From contig CAZVLB010000004.1 of the NCBI GenBank assembly GCA_964627935.1, positions 153,842 to 217,841 of the forward strand: a stretch of DNA of 64,000 nt, in the 5' to 3' direction. Positions 14,483-33,783 of this stretch are shown here, in pieces; position 1 is the stretch's first letter; each line of letters opens with the position of its first letter. The translations under genes were made by a program, and so were the position numbers. The notes under the pieces are model-generated. The model did not search any database. It saw nothing but the letters and a program-made list of their open reading frames with translations, and was not told where the DNA came from. The stretch is from an uncultured Ignavibacteria bacterium. GTDB lineage: Bacteria > Zixibacteria > MSB-5A5 > JAABVY01.

Positions 14483-15037
14483 TTGGAATCAGCCCTCTTC
14501 CCAAGTTTATTTTAAATTCAATTAACTTTGCAGATATATTTTCATTATCGGAAAAAGAAAACCAGATTTAACTTAAATCTTTATTTGACTGTAATTTAGA
14601 CAACACTTCGACCATGCTGCCAAAGCTAATCCTATCCATCCCTCAGTGTCAATCCGATTAACCATTCTTTAACAGCTGCGCCCGGCATTAAATAAAAGAC
14701 CACTAAAATAGTCGTATATGTCCTTTATAAACCTTCGGAAAATGTTGATTAAAAATAAGTTAAGTCGAATAATTTACTTGACAGATGTCCAAAATTTGAA
14801 CATTTTAAAAGTACGTTTTGGGATAAATTTACAACTTTACATTTCTATTACTTCGTAACTGCGAAGCCTGTTTAAAAAAGAGCTTTGACAAAATTGATAA
14901 TGACCTGAAACAGGTCAAATGGAATCTGTGGCCAGTCCATTTGACAGTTATAGTGTGGGCCGTAATTGGATTTCATGGCGCACCGGGCCGCACCCTGAGT
15001 TGTAAAAAACATTTTCTACATAGGAATGGGAGATACT

Positions 15038-18000
15038 ATGAGAAAACCATTGATACTGCTACTCGTTTTGGGCTTCACTTTTCTTCTCACCTCACTTGCA
15101 ACCGCCGCCGAGGATGACTGGTGGGCGGATTCATTGTCGACCAAGCGCGGTTCGGGCGAACCGACCCTGCAGGAGATTTTTGATGACCTGGGCTATGATA
15201 TCGATGCTGATGCCGATGAGCTGGGAATCGAAACATTCTGCGCCCTGCCCGGACAGAACCTGGCGACAATTATAATAGAGGTTGCCGGATCATCAACAAC
15301 GGCAAATTCCGGATGGTATGTTGCCGGGGATTCGAGCACATTATACCAGATCTTTTCCGGTTCCAATGTGCCCGGTGATTCTACCACATTTACTATAACC
15401 GCCGGAGATTCAATCGGCTTCTACATGGAACCGAATCTTTCCACATATCATATCTGGTTTACCGAGAATTTCATGAATTCAGATAATTTCGATCATGCCC
15501 GGGTCTATTCAACATCTGTTCCGCATGAGTACCTGGTCTGTTTCGAGGACCTGAACAATGGCGGCGATATGGATTACAACGACCTGATTGTGAAGATCAA
15601 ATTCGCCAACCAGGAACCTACTATTGAATTGAGCGGCCTGACCGATTATTTCCTGTGTGCACCGGAGCAGATCTGTATCGATATTCTTGCCGAGGATGCC
15701 AACTGTGAAGGGGATACATTGACGGTCGAGATGGTTCAGGGCCCCGGCACATTTACCAGTATTGTGGGAGTCGGACCAATCAACGCCAGCCATTGTTTTA
15801 CACCCGCGAGCATGGATGATAGCTATCAGTTTATTTTCAAGGTTACCGATGAAGTCGGGGCCGAAGCTTATGATACAGTTACTATTAATGTAGAGATAAA
15901 TGATCCGCCAGTAATAACCTGCCCTGCAGATATTGCACTGCAATGCTCAGAGTCTACCGATCCATCCAATACGGGATCAGCCAGCGCGACCGATGATCAT
16001 GATGCCAATCCGGCTATCAGCTATACTGATACGGAAACCGCCGGATCATGCCCGCAGGAAAAGACAATTACAAGACGATGGAAGGCGGTCGATAGTTGCG
16101 GCGATTCGGCTGTCTGTATTCAGACGATTGTGGTTGAAGATACCACAATACCGGCAATAACCTGTCCTGCAGATATCACAATTGACTGCAATGGTTCAAC
16201 CGATCCATCAAATACCGGATCAGCCACAGCGACAGACAACTGCGATACGGCACCGGATATTACCTATGCCGATGTCACCAATGGCAATGTTATCACCAGA
16301 ACATGGACAGCCACCGATGACTGTGGCAATTCATCCAGCTGTGATCAGTTGATCACGATTGAGGATACAACTCCTCCGACTATCACATGTCCCGATGATG
16401 TCTCAGTTCAATGTATTGCCGATCTTCCACCTGTTGATATCAACGCCGTGACAGTTTCAGATGACTGCGATGCAAATCCGGCTGTGACCCATATCAGCGA
16501 TGTCTCTGATGGTAACAGCTGCCCGGAGATTATTACCAGAACCTACAGGGCAACAGATGCATCAGGTAATTATGCCGAATGTTCACAGTTGATTACCATA
16601 GATGATACAGAAGTACCTGTAATAACCTGTCCCGCAGATATCACAATTGACTGCAATGGTTCAAGCGATCCATCGAATACCGGATCAGCTACAGCAACGG
16701 ATAACTGCGATACAGCTCCTGATGTTACCTATGCCGATGTCACCAACGGCAATGTTATCACCAGAACCTGGACAGCTACCGATGACTGCGGAAATTCAGT
16801 CGGCTGTGACCAGTTGATCACGATAGAGGATACAGCTGCACCGACTATTGCATGCCCGGATGATGTTTCAGTGCAATGTATTGCCGATCTTCCGCCGTTT
16901 GATATCAACGCCGTGACAGTTTCAGATGACTGCGATGCAAATCCGGCTGTGACTCATATCAGCGATCTTTCAGACGGTAACAGCTGTCCGGAGATTATAA
17001 CCAGAACCTACAGGGCAACCGATGCCTCCGGCAACTATGCTGAATGTACTCAGTTGATTACGATAGATGACACAGAAGCTCCCGTGATAACCTGCCCTGC
17101 AGATATCACAATCGACTGCAATGGTTCAAGCGATCCATCGAATACCGGATCAGCTACAGCAACGGATAACTGCGATACAGCTCCTGATGTTACCTATGCC
17201 GATGTCACCAACGGCAATGTTATCACCAGGACCTGGACAGCTACCGATGACTGCGGTAATTCAGCCAGCTGTGACCAGTTGATCACGATAGAGGATACAA
17301 CTGCACCGACTATTGCATGCCCGGATGATGTCTCAGTGCAGTGTATTGCCGATCTTCCACCGGTTGATATCAATGCTGTTACGGTCACAGATGACTGCGA
17401 TACAAATCCTGTGGTGACTCATATCAGCGATGTCTCTGATGGTAACAGCTGCCCGGAGATTATAACCAGAACCTACAGGGCAACAGATGCATCAGGTAAT
17501 TATGCCGAATGTTCACAGTTGATTACCATAGATGATACAGAAGTACCTGTAATAACCTGTCCCGCAGATATCACAATTGACTGCAATGGTTCAAGCGATC
17601 CATCGAATACCGGATCAGCTACAGCAACGGATAACTGCGATACAGCTCCTGATGTTACCTATGCCGATGTCACCAACGGCAATGTTATCACCAGGACCTG
17701 GACAGCTACCGATGACTGCGGAAATTCAGCCAGCTGTGACCAGTTGATTGAATTCAATCCCAATACTGCGCCGGTTTGCGATATCCCTGAAGATACAACA
17801 ATTACCCAGTGTACACCGACCGAGGTCTGCCTGCCGGTTTCGGCCACCGACGCCGAGAATAATCTTGTCGGTTGTGAATTGACTGATGGTCCCGGCCAGT
17901 TAGCTAACGGCAACTGGTGCTATACTCCACAGGGTGATGAAAGTGTCATTGTAACGATAACATGTACTGATGAATGTGATGAGTTCTGCGAGGAAACATT

Positions 18001-20110
18001 TACGGTTACCTTCGAGATGAACAGTTCGCCGTCTATTACAGTTGCGGCTGATATGGATGAGTTCGTCTGTAATGCGGCAGAAGAAATCTGTTTCGCCAAT
18101 TCTGCCAATGATCCAGATCTGCCCAGTGACAATCTTACATTCTCACTGACAAATGCCCCGGCCGGTTCATCCATAAATGCCCAGACAGGCCAGGTATGTT
18201 TCTCACCCGGATCATCGGGGACATTCAACTTCACAGTTCGAGTCACTGATGATTGCGGTTCATATGCCGAAGATCAGGTGACCGTAAATATCGAAGAGAA
18301 CAATCCGCCGACAATATCGTCGGCGCAGAATAATTATTCATATACCTACTGTCCCGGCACATCACCGGTCGAGCGCTGTTTCAACAGCTTTGCTATCGAT
18401 GATCCCGATCCGCAGCATGATGCCGGCGACCTGACATTGAGCAAGATCGAGGGCCCGGGCACATTCGATCCGGTAACCATGAAAACCTGCTTCACGCCGG
18501 ATGTCATGGATGCTACTTATACATTTGTATATGAACTGACCGATCCATGCGGAGCCTCAGCTTATGACACAATCACGGTTGAGACAATAGTGCTCGATGA
18601 CTGCGATTCAACCACCTGTCTGGAGATTTCTTTGGGTGATACGACCTGCGTTTACAATGGCGTATATACTCTTGTTCCGGTCGAAATCCAGAACCACACA
18701 GGGGGCGGTATCGGGGGATTCGAATTCCTGATCAGCTACGATGCATCGGCTTTTACCTTTATCGAGGCATTTCAGGCCGAAGCGATCGAGGATTGGGAAT
18801 ACTTCACATATCGCACGGGACCGTTTGGAAATTGCGGTTCCCAGTGTCCCGGCGGCATGGTTCTGCTGGTTGGTTTGGCCGATATTAATAACGGCGCGCC
18901 TCATCCGCCGGAACCGGCATTCGATCCCAACGGTACCCTGGCATGGATGAAGTTCTATGTCACTTCCGACAGAAACTACGGCGGCCAGATTTTTCCGCTT
19001 GAATTCATCTGGCTGGATTGTACCAATAATCTCGTCTCAAACAGGACCGGCGACACGGTCTTTGTGGATAAATTAATTTATGGCCCGCTGGGTTATGTTG
19101 ATTGGGATGAGTTCGATGATGTAACTTATCCGGATGCCGACAGGCCATTTGGCCTCGGCGCTCCCGATCTATGTGTCGTGGGGGATAAGGTCGAGCCGCG
19201 CAGATGTATAATCTTCTATGAAGGATACATCAGTATCTGTCATCCCGATTCTATCGATGCGCGCGGCGATTTGAATCTCAATAATGTGCCCAATGAGATC
19301 GGTGATGGTGTGCTTTACACCAATTTCTTCATCTATGGCCCATCAGTATTTATCGTCAACCTGCCCGGCCAGATAGCGGCTTCGGATGTCAACGCTGACG
19401 GAAGAACCTTGACAGTTGGCGACCTTGTATACCTGATCAGGGTACTCAATGGTGATGCGGCTCCGTATCCAAAACTCAGCCCCTTTGCCAACAGCCTTGA
19501 ACTGACGACCAGTGTCACGCATGATGGCTTAACGGTACAGGCATTCTCGGATATCGACCTGGGTGCGATACGTCTGTCCTTTGAGGTCGAGCATGGTGTT
19601 GATGTCAATGTCAGCCTGGCTGATGATATCGAGAATATGAGCCTTAAATCCGATATTGTTAATAATCGTCTGAATGTGATAATCTACAATTTCGACAAAG
19701 CAAGTATCCCTGCGGGCAGATCGGAATTGATTAGCATTATCACCGATGGCAATCTGGAACTGGTTCAAGCCGAGGCTTCGGATTACGATGGCGCTCAGCT
19801 TGAAGTCAATCTCAGCAGAAAGCATCTGCCGACCGAGTTTGCGCTTGAGCAGAACTATCCGAACCCATTCAACCCGGAAACTGAAATCAGCCTGGCATTG
19901 CCACAGGCCGGTGACTGGAGTCTGGCGATTTACAACATCAAGGGCCAGCTTGTGAAGGAATTCAGCGGCTATTCGGATGCCGGAATCGTGATTGTGCGCT
20001 GGGATTCAAAAGATCACGGCGGCAATCCGGTTGCCTCCGGTATCTATTTCTACAAGGCGGAATACAACGGCGTGGCTTCCGAGACACGCAAGATGGTGCT
20101 GATTAAATAG
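15038..20110 (+). CDS. secreted HYR-repeat adhesin-like protein with cohesin and dockerin modules and T9SS C-terminal sorting domain
   Basis: Signal peptide 'MRKPLILLLVLGFTFLLTSLATA'. There are about 10 HYR-like modules ('ITCPADITIDC…ATDNCD…TRTWTATDDCGNS'). A cohesin-like module follows ('GIGGFEFLISYDASAFTFIEAF…GTLAWMKFYV'), then a dockerin repeat pair ('GDLNLNNVPNEIGDG…', 'DVNADGRTLTVGDLVYLIRVLNG'). The C-terminal T9SS CTD is 'LEQNYPNPFNPETEISL…GIYFYKAEY…KMVLIK'. RBS GGAG sits 5 nt upstream of the ATG at 15038; an alternative ATG is at 15026. Confidence 0.8.
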   Translation: MRKPLILLLVLGFTFLLTSLATAAEDDWWADSLSTKRGSGEPTLQEIFDDLGYDIDADADELGIETFCALPGQNLATIIIEVAGSSTTANSGWYVAGDSSTLYQIFSGSNVPGDSTTFTITAGDSIGFYMEPNLSTYHIWFTENFMNSDNFDHARVYSTSVPHEYLVCFEDLNNGGDMDYNDLIVKIKFANQEPTIELSGLTDYFLCAPEQICIDILAEDANCEGDTLTVEMVQGPGTFTSIVGVGPINASHCFTPASMDDSYQFIFKVTDEVGAEAYDTVTINVEINDPPVITCPADIALQCSESTDPSNTGSASATDDHDANPAISYTDTETAGSCPQEKTITRRWKAVDSCGDSAVCIQTIVVEDTTIPAITCPADITIDCNGSTDPSNTGSATATDNCDTAPDITYADVTNGNVITRTWTATDDCGNSSSCDQLITIEDTTPPTITCPDDVSVQCIADLPPVDINAVTVSDDCDANPAVTHISDVSDGNSCPEIITRTYRATDASGNYAECSQLITIDDTEVPVITCPADITIDCNGSSDPSNTGSATATDNCDTAPDVTYADVTNGNVITRTWTATDDCGNSVGCDQLITIEDTAAPTIACPDDVSVQCIADLPPFDINAVTVSDDCDANPAVTHISDLSDGNSCPEIITRTYRATDASGNYAECTQLITIDDTEAPVITCPADITIDCNGSSDPSNTGSATATDNCDTAPDVTYADVTNGNVITRTWTATDDCGNSASCDQLITIEDTTAPTIACPDDVSVQCIADLPPVDINAVTVTDDCDTNPVVTHISDVSDGNSCPEIITRTYRATDASGNYAECSQLITIDDTEVPVITCPADITIDCNGSSDPSNTGSATATDNCDTAPDVTYADVTNGNVITRTWTATDDCGNSASCDQLIEFNPNTAPVCDIPEDTTITQCTPTEVCLPVSATDAENNLVGCELTDGPGQLANGNWCYTPQGDESVIVTITCTDECDEFCEETFTVTFEMNSSPSITVAADMDEFVCNAAEEICFANSANDPDLPSDNLTFSLTNAPAGSSINAQTGQVCFSPGSSGTFNFTVRVTDDCGSYAEDQVTVNIEENNPPTISSAQNNYSYTYCPGTSPVERCFNSFAIDDPDPQHDAGDLTLSKIEGPGTFDPVTMKTCFTPDVMDATYTFVYELTDPCGASAYDTITVETIVLDDCDSTTCLEISLGDTTCVYNGVYTLVPVEIQNHTGGGIGGFEFLISYDASAFTFIEAFQAEAIEDWEYFTYRTGPFGNCGSQCPGGMVLLVGLADINNGAPHPPEPAFDPNGTLAWMKFYVTSDRNYGGQIFPLEFIWLDCTNNLVSNRTGDTVFVDKLIYGPLGYVDWDEFDDVTYPDADRPFGLGAPDLCVVGDKVEPRRCIIFYEGYISICHPDSIDARGDLNLNNVPNEIGDGVLYTNFFIYGPSVFIVNLPGQIAASDVNADGRTLTVGDLVYLIRVLNGDAAPYPKLSPFANSLELTTSVTHDGLTVQAFSDIDLGAIRLSFEVEHGVDVNVSLADDIENMSLKSDIVNNRLNVIIYNFDKASIPAGRSELISIITDGNLELVQAEASDYDGAQLEVNLSRKHLPTEFALEQNYPNPFNPETEISLALPQAGDWSLAIYNIKGQLVKEFSGYSDAGIVIVRWDSKDHGGNPVASGIYFYKAEYNGVASETRKMVLIK
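16141..17745 (+). repeat. 468-bp in-frame tandem repeat, about 3.4 near-identical copies, each encoding a pair of HYR modules
   Basis: Unit starts at about 16141, 16609, 17077 and 17545. Long stretches are identical at nucleotide level (for example 'acctgtcccgcagatatcacaattgactgcaatggttcaagcgatccatcgaataccggatcagctacagcaacggataactgcgatacagctcctgatgttacctatgccgatgtcaccaacggcaatgttatcacc'). Confidence 0.85.
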
Positions 20111-20178: not shown

Positions 20179-20221
20179 TCATATGATTTGAATCCGAAAG
20201 CAGTTTTGTTATACTGAATTT

Positions 20222-20656
20222 ATGCGCAGGAATTCCAAACCATTCAGCAGCAAAACCGGCAGGAGTTCACGTCCTCATGGCAAGCGAACAAAACCTGATT
20301 TCCATTCGGGCGCAAAAATTGAAACCAGGTCCGGCATCAGTGTCCGATCACAATATGAGAAGATCTGCGTCGATTATCTTTATAAAAACGGTGTTGAGTT
20401 CTTGTATGAGCCATTGATGCTTCTGGGCGGACGGCAGTTTCGTCCCGATTTCTTTCTGCCAGAATATAATCTCTTTCTGGAAATCTGCGGCTTTAACCAT
20501 ATGCCCTACTACCGCAGCCGGGTGGAGCAAAAGAGAGCGACTTACGAAAAGCACAAACTCAATGTGGTGTTTATCAAGTGCAGTACCAAAGGCATGCTGA
20601 TAAAAGAGATCGAAAAAGCGATAGCAGCCAAAAGAGTAGATTGCAAACCGAATTAA
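20222..20656 (+). CDS. DUF559/Vsr-like (PD-(D/E)xK-fold) small basic protein
   Basis: 144 aa with a highly basic N-terminal region. The core 'YEP…RPDFFLPEYNLFLEICGFNHM…' matches the pattern of DUF559/very-short-patch-repair-like endonuclease domains (…DF…IE-DG…H). Cys replaces the usual Asp. Confidence 0.35.
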   Translation: MRRNSKPFSSKTGRSSRPHGKRTKPDFHSGAKIETRSGISVRSQYEKICVDYLYKNGVEFLYEPLMLLGGRQFRPDFFLPEYNLFLEICGFNHMPYYRSRVEQKRATYEKHKLNVVFIKCSTKGMLIKEIEKAIAAKRVDCKPN

Positions 20657-24704: not shown

Positions 24705-25691
24705 CTATTTGCTGAGTATGCTCCTGTGAATCCAGCCTTTTTTTGACGATTTATTCCGGCTTTCAAAGCTGATCAGGTTATCCGTTTCCCGTACAACAGT
24801 TTGCATGTTCACGGCAACCTCCTGTACCTCTGCTGTCGCATTTTCAGCCTCATCCAGCCATGTCTGTACATCCGAGATGCTAACAATAGGGCTCTGAGAT
24901 TCACCCTTAACAGCAACCGCCTCAATTGCCGCGGATTTGAGCAGTTTGTCAAATTGCATTTCAAACAGATCATGACTGCGGTATATATCCGCGCAGTTGA
25001 TTTCGCCGTTAATCACTACAACCATACCGACAGCATTATTATCCTCATCCATTTGCTCTTTTATTGCCTGTATATATGGTTGTTGCAGGTTTTGATGTTC
25101 CGCGCTGTCCATCATAAGAACCAGGCTGCCTGATCTTCCGCCCCTCATCATTATTTCGCCCGATTGCATTCTGGCGATATTGTCCCAGACCTTTTGCTGA
25201 TCGGCTTCCAGATTGACCGCAAGTTTTATATCCTTGCCGACAACCATGTTTTCCGATGACTCGAATTTCATTGCATCCGCGCCAGATCGCCCGCTCCAGC
25301 GTCCATGCTCGACGCAGAACGATTTCAGGGGCACCTCGCCGGCATTTGGCTCGAGCACGAGGTCATGACGCAATAACCTGTCCTGACGGCCGCCCTTGAC
25401 AAGATCGCCGGATTGAATGTAAATCCGATAATGTGAGTTGTTGCTGACAGTCAACTCGCCTACATTGCCGGTTTCATTGACCGTAACATAGCCCTTTTCC
25501 ATTGCATCTTTAAGTGAAATCAAATTCTCAGAATCCTCGGAAGAATTATCATGAACCAGGAAGATCGACAGATTTTCATGAACGTACGGGCCGGACAGTT
25601 TATGATCACTATCGTTTTGCTGGCTGACAGCCATTGCGGCGAGGGCCAGGAGCAAAAAAGCCGCTACTGTAATGATGAGTCTGGAAGGCAT
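24705..25691 (-). CDS. secreted hypothetical protein
   Basis: 328-aa ORF with an N-terminal signal peptide ('MPSRLIITVAAFLLLALAAMAVSQ'). No recognisable domain. Confidence 0.5.
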   Translation of the reverse strand: MPSRLIITVAAFLLLALAAMAVSQQNDSDHKLSGPYVHENLSIFLVHDNSSEDSENLISLKDAMEKGYVTVNETGNVGELTVSNNSHYRIYIQSGDLVKGGRQDRLLRHDLVLEPNAGEVPLKSFCVEHGRWSGRSGADAMKFESSENMVVGKDIKLAVNLEADQQKVWDNIARMQSGEIMMRGGRSGSLVLMMDSAEHQNLQQPYIQAIKEQMDEDNNAVGMVVVINGEINCADIYRSHDLFEMQFDKLLKSAAIEAVAVKGESQSPIVSISDVQTWLDEAENATAEVQEVAVNMQTVVRETDNLISFESRNKSSKKGWIHRSILSK

Positions 25692-25854: not shown

Positions 25855-26613
25855 ATGATGATACCAAGTGATAAATACATATCAATAACGGCAAAACAGG
25901 ACAGCGACTTAGTCAATTATGCCTCCTCTATGATTGCCGATGAATGGCCCGAGTTTATGCTCTATGATCCGGCGGCGGATTATATGTCAAACTGCTACCG
26001 CGATCTGCCCGAATATCAATTTGTGATCGTTGGCGCCGATAAATCAAAACCACTGGCAATCGGCAATTCGATTCCGCTCGAATACAATGATGCTCTCGAC
26101 AACTTTCCGGAAACCGGATGGGACTGGGTCATCACAAAAGGGATTGAGGATCATAGCGCCGGAGCCAAGCCAAACATAATGTCTGCTTTGCAGGTGTTAG
26201 TTTTTGGTGAGAATAAGGGACAGGGAATTAGTTCATTCGCGGTTAAATCAATGATTGCAATCGGAAAATCAAATGGCTACAAAGGCATGATCGCGCCGGT
26301 TCGTCCCACATACAAGAGCCGCTATCCATTGACCCCGATTGAGGATTATATCAGGTGGCAGGATGATTCCGGGCTGCCGTTCGATCCATGGCTGCGGGTG
26401 CATAAAAGGCTGGGGGCGAAAATTATCAAGCCCTGCCACAAATCGATGCGCATAACCGGCACAGTGTCCGAATGGGAATCGCGCACCGGCATGAAATTTC
26501 CGCAAAGCGGTGAATATATTATCCCCGGCGCACTGGTACCGGTTACGATCAGCAGGGAAGAGGACAGGGGCGTATACATGGAACCGAATGTCTGGATGTG
26601 GCATGAGTTTTAG
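25855..26613 (+). CDS. hypothetical protein, possibly GNAT-like acyltransferase fold
   Basis: 252-aa ORF. Weak GNAT motif-A-like segment 'NKGQGISSFAVKSMIAIG'. No confident assignment. Confidence 0.35.
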   Translation: MMIPSDKYISITAKQDSDLVNYASSMIADEWPEFMLYDPAADYMSNCYRDLPEYQFVIVGADKSKPLAIGNSIPLEYNDALDNFPETGWDWVITKGIEDHSAGAKPNIMSALQVLVFGENKGQGISSFAVKSMIAIGKSNGYKGMIAPVRPTYKSRYPLTPIEDYIRWQDDSGLPFDPWLRVHKRLGAKIIKPCHKSMRITGTVSEWESRTGMKFPQSGEYIIPGALVPVTISREEDRGVYMEPNVWMWHEF

Positions 26614-26620
26614 AGACTGA

Positions 26621-27232
26621 TTAATCGTCTGCCTCATCGAGATTTAATCGTTTTCGAAACCTTTCCATAAGCTCCCATCTACAGCAAAACAACATTCTGA
26701 GATGGAAACTAAAGCGTATCAGTGATTCATTATCAAACCAAATCGGAAGATCATAATCATAAAATGGGAGGTTTGCTTCAGGTGGTGTTGAATGTGGTTT
26801 GCCAAATGTTTGAACACAGTTAATAAGATATTCCTCCATTATAACTTCAAGCGGATTTGGATAATCCTCAAGCATTGTAAAACCACCGCCAATAAAAAGC
26901 TGAAGATTTACTACCTTGTTATTCTTGAAAAACAAATATATGTTAGGTCTTATCTTGATCTCATACCTGTGGTCCTCCTTTGGAAATAGAGAAAAGTCCT
27001 CAAGCGCATCAATTTTGGGTTTATATATCTTGTAAATAGCCTCCCCCTTTTGACTGCCAGCAATTTTTCTCGATAGCCAGTTAAGCTTACTGATTTTGGC
27101 CTCGTCGAGCCACTTCTCAGTCAGGATGGACGAGCTACTATCAACCGCTTTTATGAACCCCTCTGGATCAATTTCTTCAGCCAGTTTCAATGGCACTTCA
27201 TTAATGCGCAGGTTAAGATCATGCATTACCAC
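26621..27232 (-). CDS. hypothetical protein
   Basis: 203-aa ORF with coding-like composition and no recognisable motifs. Confidence 0.4.
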   Translation of the reverse strand: MVMHDLNLRINEVPLKLAEEIDPEGFIKAVDSSSSILTEKWLDEAKISKLNWLSRKIAGSQKGEAIYKIYKPKIDALEDFSLFPKEDHRYEIKIRPNIYLFFKNNKVVNLQLFIGGGFTMLEDYPNPLEVIMEEYLINCVQTFGKPHSTPPEANLPFYDYDLPIWFDNESLIRFSFHLRMLFCCRWELMERFRKRLNLDEADD

Positions 27233-27327: not shown

Positions 27328-27361
27328 AAAAAAGCGCCCCCATATTTGAGAGCGCTTTTAT
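27328..27361 (-). terminator. possible rho-independent terminator after peroxiredoxin gene
   Basis: Palindrome AAAAGCGC…GCGCTTTT followed by a U-run on the minus-strand transcript, 13 nt after the stop. The stem is short. Confidence 0.35.
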
Positions 27362-27376
27362 GAAGAAGATTAATAT

Positions 27377-27985
27377 CTATTTTTCTTTGGGTTGCCAGAC
27401 TTTCCAGACTTTGCCGACAAGGTCGGGGCCCGGCTTGAGTGTCTGGTCGCCAGGTTCCCATCCGGCCGGAGTGGCCTCGGCACCCTTGGTTTTTCTGACA
27501 TGCTGGAAAGCGTGGATCTGGCGAAGGGTCTCGGCGAATTTCCGTCCCACAGGCGGAGTCAGGACCTCCATGGCCTGGATCACACCATCCGGATCGATCA
27601 GAAACCGTCCGCGAATATTCACGCCGTTCGGTTCATCATATACGCCATAGACCCGGCCCAGGTTACCGGCACCATCGGAAACCATCGGCCAGGGAATACC
27701 GTCCTTGGTCATTTTGGAAAGCTCATCTTCTACCCAGATTTTATGAACGAAAGCGCTGTCGGTTGAAACTGAAAGGACCTCGACACCGAGTTCCTTGAGT
27801 TTATCATGCTGAGCGGCGACCGCCGCTATCTCGGTCGGTCAGACAAAGGTAAAATCGCCCGGATAGAAGCATATCAGCACCCATTTGCCCAGGTAATCCG
27901 ATAGCTTGACATTGATAAATTCTCCCTTAAAATATGCGGGGGCCTCGAAATCGGGGGCCTTGCCGCCTACTCTTGCGGTTGCCAT
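27377..27985 (-). CDS. peroxiredoxin (AhpC/Prx1 subfamily) with in-frame UGA (putative selenocysteine) at the peroxidatic position
   Basis: The tracks 27839..28099 and 27377..27712 are in the same frame, separated only by TGA at 27839-27841. The joined translation is a canonical Prx: '[11 protein letters not shown]…[14 protein letters not shown][U][35 protein letters not shown]…[10 protein letters not shown]…[13 protein letters not shown]…[12 protein letters not shown]'. The TGA replaces the Cys of the FTFVCPTE motif. The likely start is the internal ATG at 27985 ([13 protein letters not shown]); the ORF could extend to 28099. Confidence 0.7.
27785..27835 (-). promoter_or_regulatory. bacterial SECIS-like stem-loop immediately 3' of the in-frame UGA
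   Basis: mRNA: UGA CCG ACCGAG AU AGCGGC-GGUC-GCCGCU CAGCAUGAUAAACUCAAGGAA CUCGGU. The upper 6-bp helix has apical loop GGUC, the same loop sequence as the E. coli fdhF SECIS minihelix. It starts 14 nt after UGA. A lower helix ACCGAG/CUCGGU is also present. Confidence 0.55.
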
Positions 27986-28285
27986 CTTTTTTTCACCCAC
28001 TTTCTCTTCTTGTACTGTTTTTTCTTCAGGTTCGGCTGTCTCGCCGATTACACTTCCGGTCGGCCTTGCACATCCGACAGGCTTATCCGACATAAGCACC
28101 TCCTGTGTGATTAAAAAAACTGAGTATAGCTATGCGCTTTATTTTCAATTTCTGATATGCCGTTTAACATATTCTTTAAATCAAGGTAAAAAAATCATAC
28201 TGCGCAATCAGAAAATGGAAATATCGGTGGGGTAAAACCGATCCATATTGTAAAGTATAAGTGCTGTTTTGCGGAAATCTGCGGC

Positions 28286-32673: not shown

Positions 32674-33783
32674 ATGCAAAAACTGTTAATGCTTTTAATT
32701 ACAGCCTTTTTTATTTGCCTGTTGATGCCGCATGCTGATGCCCAGATCGGGATCGAGAATGAATTCATGCCGCAGGGGGGAAGAATACTTGACCAGTATC
32801 TGGATGAGCAGTTTGAGGCCGTCATTTATAACGACGTGACCCTGCCATCCGGCGGTCCCCATGAATTCGATCTGTCGGATGCAAATTTTGAGCATGAGGC
32901 AATCGGGACTGTCGTGGATAAGTCTTCAGCGCCATTGAATAGTGAATTCTCCAGTGCCAACCTGGTGGTCAGATATGTACCCGCTACGGGTGAGGCAGAT
33001 ACAATCTACAGCTTTTCTGAATCAACCAACAGTATATTCCGCGACCTCGGTACGGTTTTTACCTCTTCGCGGGCCGGGATAATACTGCGCAAATATACAA
33101 GCGCCGATCCGCATTATAATTTCCCTATAAACTATGGTGATCAATGGATCGTGGAAAGAACGCTGGTTGAAGAATACTCGGCGGATAGTTACCAGGAAGT
33201 GAAAGACTCATTTTCCTATGATGTCGATGCCTGGGGATCGGCCAAATACAATGACAATATATTCCCCTGCCTGAGGCTCAGCTACACACGCAAATCTGTT
33301 AACAGCTTTTACAGCCAGGGTATGCTTATCAGCCAGACAGTAAATAATTCCGAGGGTGCGGAATTCATTGGGGAAGGTTTCCAGTTTCTGGCGGCGGTGG
33401 AGAAAACAACTTTTGGCAGAAGCACTACTTATACAGCCACTGCCAGCGGTGAATTTGCCGATATCGTGACCGGCATAAGGGAAAATCAAACCAGTACCTT
33501 GCCCGAAAACTATGAGCTTTCACAGAATTATCCGAATCCATTCAATCCCACCACCGAAATTCAGTTCAGCCTGCCAAAAAGCTCGGCAGTCGAGCTTGCG
33601 GTTTACAACATGCTTGGACAGAAGATAAATACGCTGGTCAAGCAGGCGCTCGATGCGGGCACATATACAGTTGACTGGAACGGTAACAATAGCGCCGGTA
33701 ATCCGGTAGCAACAGGAGTTTACTTTTATCGCCTGACTGTTGGTGAACACAGTGAAGCCAGGAAGATGCTGCTCCTGAAATAA
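32674..33783 (+). CDS. secreted protein with T9SS C-terminal sorting domain
   Basis: 369 aa. Signal peptide 'MQKLLMLLITAFFICLLMPHADA'. C-terminal 'LSQNYPNPFNPTTEIQFSLPKSS…GVYFYRLTVGEHSEARKMLLLK'. RBS GGAGGAG sits 7 nt upstream. Confidence 0.7.
   Translation: MQKLLMLLITAFFICLLMPHADAQIGIENEFMPQGGRILDQYLDEQFEAVIYNDVTLPSGGPHEFDLSDANFEHEAIGTVVDKSSAPLNSEFSSANLVVRYVPATGEADTIYSFSESTNSIFRDLGTVFTSSRAGIILRKYTSADPHYNFPINYGDQWIVERTLVEEYSADSYQEVKDSFSYDVDAWGSAKYNDNIFPCLRLSYTRKSVNSFYSQGMLISQTVNNSEGAEFIGEGFQFLAAVEKTTFGRSTTYTATASGEFADIVTGIRENQTSTLPENYELSQNYPNPFNPTTEIQFSLPKSSAVELAVYNMLGQKINTLVKQALDAGTYTVDWNGNNSAGNPVATGVYFYRLTVGEHSEARKMLLLK

Follow-up and report, generated by a model that had tools for sequence, protein, structure and literature searches.

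A very probable PrxU-type selenocysteine peroxiredoxin gene with a conserved SECIS hairpin in an uncultured bacterium of the Zixibacteria lineage

The window analyzed here is a stretch of 64,000 nucleotides (64 kb) of contig CAZVLB010000004.1, from an uncultured bacterium placed by GTDB in the Zixibacteria. On its minus strand lies a gene, here called prxU, for a peroxiredoxin (Prx) of the AhpC/Prx1 type with a UGA codon at the position of its catalytic residue. The minus-strand frame that runs from 28099 to 27377 is interrupted only by this one TGA (27841..27839). Ordinary open reading frame (ORF) calling breaks prxU there into two fragments of 86 aa and 111 aa; the initial annotation of the window had placed both fragments in one frame with nothing but the TGA between them, and a single open frame is indeed seen from 28099 to 27377. 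The codon is preceded by FYPGDFTFV and followed by PTEIAA, a context that corresponds to the peroxidatic Cys position of AhpC/Prx1 proteins. The parts of the gene and its immediate flanks are listed below, where Sec (U in protein motifs) stands for selenocysteine and SECIS for the selenocysteine insertion sequence.

27377..28093, minus strand: prxU coding sequence, 238 codons including the predicted Sec85, from the ATG at 28093..28091 to the TAG at 27379..27377
28099..28104, minus strand: Shine-Dalgarno sequence AGGAGG, 5 nt 5' of the ATG, read directly from the sequence
27839..27841, minus strand: UGA codon, predicted Sec85, the peroxidatic residue of the motif P78-x3-T82-x2-U85, placed by the frame, the TGA in relatives and structure alignment
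27812..27827, minus strand: predicted apical hairpin of the SECIS, a 6-bp stem AGCGGC/GCCGCU with a GGUC tetraloop (27821..27818), defined by comparison of 81 sequences
27330..27359, minus strand: terminator-like hairpin and U-run, 18 nt past the stop codon, with 13 pairs (6 of them G-C), then TTTATTTT
28194..28221, minus strand: weak sigma-70-like promoter TTTCCA-16-TATGAT, ~100 nt 5' of the ATG, a consensus match only (9/12)

With AGGAGG at a distance of 5 nt, the ATG at 28093 is the most likely start, which gives a gene of 238 codons and makes the TGA its codon 85. A second terminator-like site is present between prxU and the upstream histidine-kinase gene, and since sites of this kind flank the gene on both sides, prxU looks monocistronic.

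With U read as C, the prxU product scored 397.6 bits on the NCBIfam equivalog model NF040737 (peroxi_PrxU), for which the cut-off is 270, over profile positions 2-232 of 233, while the next-best family, AhpC (TIGR03137), reached 192.6 bits and stayed under its cut-off of 272. The Pfam domains found were AhpC-TSA (1.6e-37) and 1-cysPrx_C. Typical 2-Cys Prx (Arabidopsis BAS1, 5zte; human PRDX2, 1qmv; Salmonella AhpC) aligned over residues ~37-226 with E values from 1e-40 to 4e-48, the solved structures 5zte and 4fh8 giving 4e-48 and 2e-46, respectively. In the alignment to these solved 2-Cys Prx (5zte, 4fh8), the UGA codon is aligned with the peroxidatic Cys of FTFV[C/S]PTEI, where the initial annotation had placed it from the motif FTFVCPTE, and the catalytic residues Pro78, Thr82 and Arg161 are all present. 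The window protein thus shares the active-site Pro, Thr and Arg and the C-terminal PAGW region with typical 2-Cys Prx, but it has Sec in place of the peroxidatic Cys and Thr208 in place of the resolving Cys, and it adds a 36-residue N-terminal tail with an invariant Cys8. The AlphaFold2 model that we used is that of a homologue in the Cys form (P0003, 62% identical to the window protein), and its Prx core is predicted with a local confidence score (pLDDT) of >90.

We conclude that the locus is very probably an intact prxU gene, encoding a selenocysteine peroxiredoxin of the AhpC/Prx1 type that is decoded at the UGA via a SECIS. The initial annotation had likewise read the gene as a putative selenoprotein Prx, a reading upheld by the PrxU family match and, as detailed below, by the conservation of the UGA and hairpin, the loss of the hairpin in Cys-encoding relatives and the use of the standard genetic code.

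Relatives were taken from one genome per species (GTDB representatives), and the best 80 of 546 matches, with 65-81% identity over residues 1-238, were compared at the DNA level; counts of 81 in this text are those 80 relatives plus the window sequence. Throughout these best 80 of 546 relatives, protein similarity runs across the stop on both sides, and the homologous codon is TGA in 80/80. About ten phyla are represented among them. The closest relative belongs to the Zixibacteria (81%); the others come from Ignavibacteria, Calditrichota, Chloroflexota/Anaerolineae, Acidobacteriota, KSB1, Marinimicrobia, Desulfobacterota and further groups, as well as from Thiobacillus and other Gammaproteobacteria. 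Protein databases record the site differently: among the nearest 120 database proteins, the residue is W in 92, C in 24, and G, S, R and L in 1 each. For one of the W entries (P0021; L090:135-857), the DNA carries a TGA codon followed by the same hairpin, and the stored protein is not obtained under genetic code 11. Because the codon of P0021 is TGA on the DNA, we read the W at the catalytic site as an artefact of gene calling in which UGA was translated as Trp (code 4). The predicted dominant state among close relatives is Sec. The initial annotation had described Sec-containing Prx as known but rare in bacteria; in this clade, by the counts of W proteins (92/120) and of TGA loci (80/80), they are not rare. 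The lone G entry perhaps reflects a code 25 translation of UGA. The S, R and L entries are each one nucleotide away from TGA.

The predicted SECIS hairpin occupies nt 15-30 counted from the U of the UGA, which leaves a spacer of 11 nt, and has an energy of -10.5 kcal/mol. It is the AGCGGC-GGUC-GCCGCU hairpin already pointed out in the initial annotation, where the distance of 14 nt takes the U of the UGA as its starting point. GGUC is the loop of 79 of the 81 sequences and AGUU that of the other 2, which leaves the central G-U invariant. In at least 80/81, the four core stem pairs form. At pair 18-27, 43 sequences have G-C, 32 A-U, 4 C-G and 2 U-A, with 0 mismatches. Position 18 is the third base of a Ser/Ala codon and position 27 that of an Ala codon; since the pair covaries at synonymous sites, protein coding cannot explain the covariation. 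For a set of 30 diverse sequences, the covariation score of the hairpin was 0.195 compared to a shuffled mean of 0.087, a value that 0/500 shuffles reached, and the hairpin covariation was also well above that of every slid control. One position of the stem is less constant, with U at nt 16 opposite C29, a mismatch, in 24/81 sequences. Together, the TGA in 81/81 and the compensatory changes point to a hairpin structure kept by selection, and it is on this comparison that the significance of the hairpin appears to rest. Conservation of UGA and hairpin in close relatives, which the initial annotation had set against decay of the gene, is what the relatives display, the hairpin being retained with compensatory changes.

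As a control, we used the DNA of seven relatives that have TGC at the site. The core stem and loop G-U are both kept in 80/82 UGA forms but in only 1/7 Cys forms (Fisher p = 3e-7), and the hairpin is therefore tied to the UGA. The sole Cys form with both core and loop G-U (L091) has a GGUC loop on a 4-bp stem. In a second Cys form (L084:1321-1368), the stem is intact and the loop is GAUC, and a third (L083) has the GGUC loop with 3 of 4 core pairs. The stem is lost in the other four, one of which has also lost the loop G-U. At the nucleotide level, GCG-GTC is fixed in the UGA forms and not in the Cys forms. The partial hairpins of the Cys forms suggest that these are relics of recent Sec-to-Cys conversions.

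The best-known point of comparison is the SECIS of E. coli fdhF. Its sequence, TGACACGGCCCATCGGTTGCAGGTCTGCACC, was found in fdhF of 5419/5426 complete E. coli genomes, with GGUC flanked by GCA and UGC, which confirms the identity of the apical loops claimed in the initial annotation. The minimal E. coli element, a stem-loop of 17 nt, spans nt 15-31 and is separated from the UGA by 11 nt (PMC8659212). Within it, U17, G23 and U24 are conserved, loop residues G23 and U24 are essential, and the SelB contacts are U17 and G23 (PMC8659212). The window hairpin has the same start at nt 15, the same 11-nt spacer and the same GGUC loop with its G-U, and it likewise lies inside the coding sequence directly 3' of the UGA. 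It differs in having a perfect, G+C-rich stem of 6 bp and no conserved lower helix.

Several observations weigh against a prxU gene decoded through this hairpin. The single-sequence fold is unexceptional (z = -0.35 for 71 nt and z = -1.57 for 34 nt), and in isolation an alternative structure, fold B, in which the UGA region pairs with CGGCGGUC, is favored by 2.5 kcal/mol. In addition, the window hairpin is without a bulged U equivalent to U17 of the fdhF element, and its loop G-U therefore lies at nt 22-23, not 23-24; E. coli SelB requires this bulge, which is not known to be a universal feature. No selA, selB, selD or tRNA-Sec was detected within the 64-kb window, and the Zixibacteria loci show no sel genes within 10 kb of prxU. 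A search of the window with Rfam at gathering thresholds gave no match. Since the hairpin is not the minimum free energy structure and its z-scores are weak, thermodynamics alone cannot validate it, and comparative analysis was used. The same weak statistics would suit a pseudogene, in which the TGA of an ordinary Cys-Prx gene arose from TGC or TGT by nonsense mutation, or is an error of sequencing, and the hairpin arises incidentally from the codons for Ala-Ala-Val-Ala-Ala: the hairpin is not significantly more stable than shuffled sequence, and the sel machinery is not seen in the window. However, the same TGA is found in 80/80 relatives across phyla, the 153 codons past the TGA show no damage and follow the family model through to its end, the stem covaries at third codon positions, and GCG-GTC is fixed in UGA forms only. 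A pseudogene is thus very improbable, the comparative data having effectively refuted it. The initial annotation had argued that a disabling mutation would hardly fall on the catalytic codon and also be followed by such a hairpin; the comparison does exclude a nonsense mutation, but the hairpin taken by itself is not statistically remarkable.

Reassignment of UGA, to Trp under genetic code 4 or to Gly under code 25, would account for the W in 92/120 and the G in 1/120 of the nearest database proteins. TGA is nevertheless the stop codon of 10/30 long ORFs in the window, and therefore the standard code applies. There is also no other credible in-frame TGA gene: prxU is the only credible case among the 31 TGA-joined ORF pairs of the window, the others, except 20187..20600, being contained, by their coordinates, in long ORFs of a different frame or of the opposite strand, and the translation of 20187..20600 is unlike a protein as judged by inspection, with no family search made. 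Moreover, a Trp or Gly in place of the peroxidatic residue would leave the enzyme inactive, and the W of P0021 is a TGA codon with the same hairpin behind it. On its stop-codon usage, we consider codon reassignment refuted and give it next to no weight. It is also improbable, if somewhat less so than a pseudogene, that prxU is a real Sec gene that relies on another RNA signal, either a two-tier structure with a lower helix or a switch involving fold B, which sequesters the UGA. The lower helix, ACCGAG/CUCGGU, was part of the structure described in the initial annotation. It can form in the window sequence, but only 61.7% of its cells are paired in the comparison and 3/6 pairs are unpaired in most relatives, and we rejected it as not conserved. 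Fold B (27808-27841, minus strand) pairs GACCG.CCG of the UGA region with CGG.CGGUC. It is the minimum free energy structure of the 34-mer (-13.0 versus -10.5 kcal/mol for the hairpin) and is 82% paired across relatives; however, three of its pairs fail to form in 11 to 17 of 30 sequences, the others are mostly codon-fixed, and position 27 covaries with position 18 and not with the invariant A3 of the UGA. Poorly conserved and failing the covariation checks, fold B was rejected as the signal, although it may have a regulatory role. A Sec-encoding prxU read through the simple apical hairpin remains our preferred explanation.

With respect to the Sec machinery, the initial annotation had noted that the window holds no sel genes, and our searches agree: ARAGORN found no tRNA gene in the window, and tblastn with SelA, SelB and SelD from related loci gave no match there. 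Identical contig sequence is present in runs SRR7048220, SRR7048224, SRR7048225 and SRR7048227 and on a contig of 0.2-1 Mb, and in these identical contigs the ~3 kb past the left end of the window carry CofD-like and Amphi-Trp genes but none of the sel genes. For the protein at the right end of the window, no database record was found. A SelB-like tblastn match in a Zixibacteria locus (L004) was set aside, as its N-terminal GTPase looks BipA/TypA-type by sequence inspection, with no family search made. In six proteobacterial loci (L038, L049, L053, L060, L065 and L071), selA and selB lie directly 3' of prxU. For L053 (10001-15522), selA scored 589 bits and selB 458 bits; a tRNA-Sec follows in L053 and L060 (10001-15533), and selD follows in L065. 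The hosts of these prxU-selA-selB loci are Thiobacillus and other metagenome-assembled genomes of Gammaproteobacteria/Pseudomonadota. This arrangement lends indirect support to Sec decoding of prxU, and it suggests that in these selA-selB-linked genomes prxU may be a principal client of the Sec machinery.

Following the E. coli paradigm, SelB with GTP and Sec-tRNA(Sec) would bind the GGUC hairpin through its C-terminal domain and, competing with RF2, place Sec in the A site, after which the remaining 153 codons would be translated. By analogy with the Prx family, the selenolate of U85, set by P78, T82 and R161, would attack a hydroperoxide and become a selenenic acid; a thiol would resolve the selenenic acid, and thioredoxin would regenerate the enzyme. 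Four features of the gene bear on the identity of the resolving thiol.

27470..27472, minus strand: Thr208 codon (ACT) at the classical resolving-Cys position, EATPAGW versus EVCPAGW, by alignment to 5zte and 4fh8
27986..28093, minus strand: N-terminal extension, residues 1-36, consisting of V-G-C8-A-R-P-T-G and a Glu/Lys-rich linker, without counterpart in solved peroxiredoxins
28072..28070, minus strand: Cys8 codon, invariant in 84 aligned family members and in 81/81 genomic sequences
27869..27871, minus strand: Cys75 codon in CFYPGD, an invariant family column with Phe in 5zte and 4fh8

With Thr208 at the resolving position, the window protein is not expected to follow the typical 2-Cys mechanism. 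Position 208 is C in 41 of the 81 sequences, T in 31 and M in 3, the motif not being found in 6, so that the window copy has Thr where about half of its relatives hold the C-terminal resolving Cys, and the classical resolving Cys has been lost in at least 34/81 sequences (Thr or Met). Because T208 replaces this Cys, the resolving thiol would most likely be C8 or C75, unless thioredoxin acts directly. Cys8 lies at the tip of the N-terminal tail, in the family motif G-C-(A/G)-(R/K)-(P/T/V). Solved Prx align only from about residue 37, and in the model of P0003 the tail has a pLDDT of 41-65, consistent with a flexible arm. When the first 36 residues are removed, the PrxU score drops to 376.3 bits; the extension adds 21 bits and therefore belongs to the curated family model. 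It is possible, though on balance doubtful, that this Cys8 tail is the physiological resolving arm of PrxU and forms a selenenyl-sulfide with Sec85, either within its own subunit or across to the partner. We found no account in the literature of the role of the N-terminal tail or of the biochemistry of an N-terminal-arm mechanism. Cys75 is an alternative candidate for the resolving role; 5zte and 4fh8 have Phe (FFYP) where the window protein has this invariant Cys. Should Cys8 act in this way, the C-terminal resolving Cys would be dispensable, and a clade of selenoenzymes would use an N-terminal-arm variant of the 2-Cys mechanism.

None of the neighbors of prxU has a link to its redox chemistry; besides the ARPP-1 domain protein, the two ORFs without Pfam match and the type IX secretion protein listed below, they comprise PAS sensor kinases, a hybrid histidine kinase/response regulator and an FAD/BBE oxidase. 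Synteny with related loci is essentially absent, except for a histidine kinase that is 58% identical in a Zixibacteria locus (L019). This kinase, the 81% PrxU identity to Zixibacteria and the type IX secretion domain suggest a Zixibacteria-like host within the FCB group; the species representatives contained no close genome. Other features of the window are the following.

24705-25691, minus strand: ARPP-1 domain protein (PF20208, 5.6e-57), which with the next two ORFs lies directly downstream of prxU
25855-26613, plus strand: ORF of 252 aa with no Pfam match
26621-27232, minus strand: ORF of 203 aa with no Pfam match
32674-33783, plus strand: 369-aa protein with a type IX secretion C-terminal sorting domain, which points to a host of the FCB (Fibrobacteres-Chlorobi-Bacteroidetes) group
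15026-20110, plus strand: very large ORF of 1694 aa
48797-57388, plus strand: very large ORF of 2863 aa

The founding member of PrxU is that of Eubacterium acidaminophilum (Sohling et al. 2001, as cited in PMC13188914 and PMC9312934). The TxxU peroxiredoxin is counted among the experimentally verified prokaryotic selenoproteins, with reference to the same study (PMC13188914, PMC9312934), and Prx are among the prominent selenoproteins of marine metagenomes (PMC9312934). Compared to the NF040737 family, the window copy has the same full-length match with N-terminal extension, Sec in the TxxU / PxxxTxxU motif and the AhpC/Prx1-type fold, and it shows no family-defining difference. It comes from an uncultured lineage, whereas the founding PrxU is that of a Firmicute. 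The E. acidaminophilum selenocysteine peroxiredoxin is reportedly about 203 aa long. The window gene is a typical member of this curated selenoprotein family and is therefore already known rather than new.

Accordingly, the gene has little discovery value, Sec-containing Prx being an experimentally established family that has been known since 2001 and has a curated model. It does carry a lesson for annotation, in that standard ORF calling splits the gene and large public collections mostly record its relatives with a spurious Trp at the catalytic residue. The alignment also offers an unusually clean natural case of SECIS covariation at synonymous codon positions, alongside Cys-converted relatives that display what appear to be relic SECIS hairpins. 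For the source organism, prxU marks a probable user of selenium.

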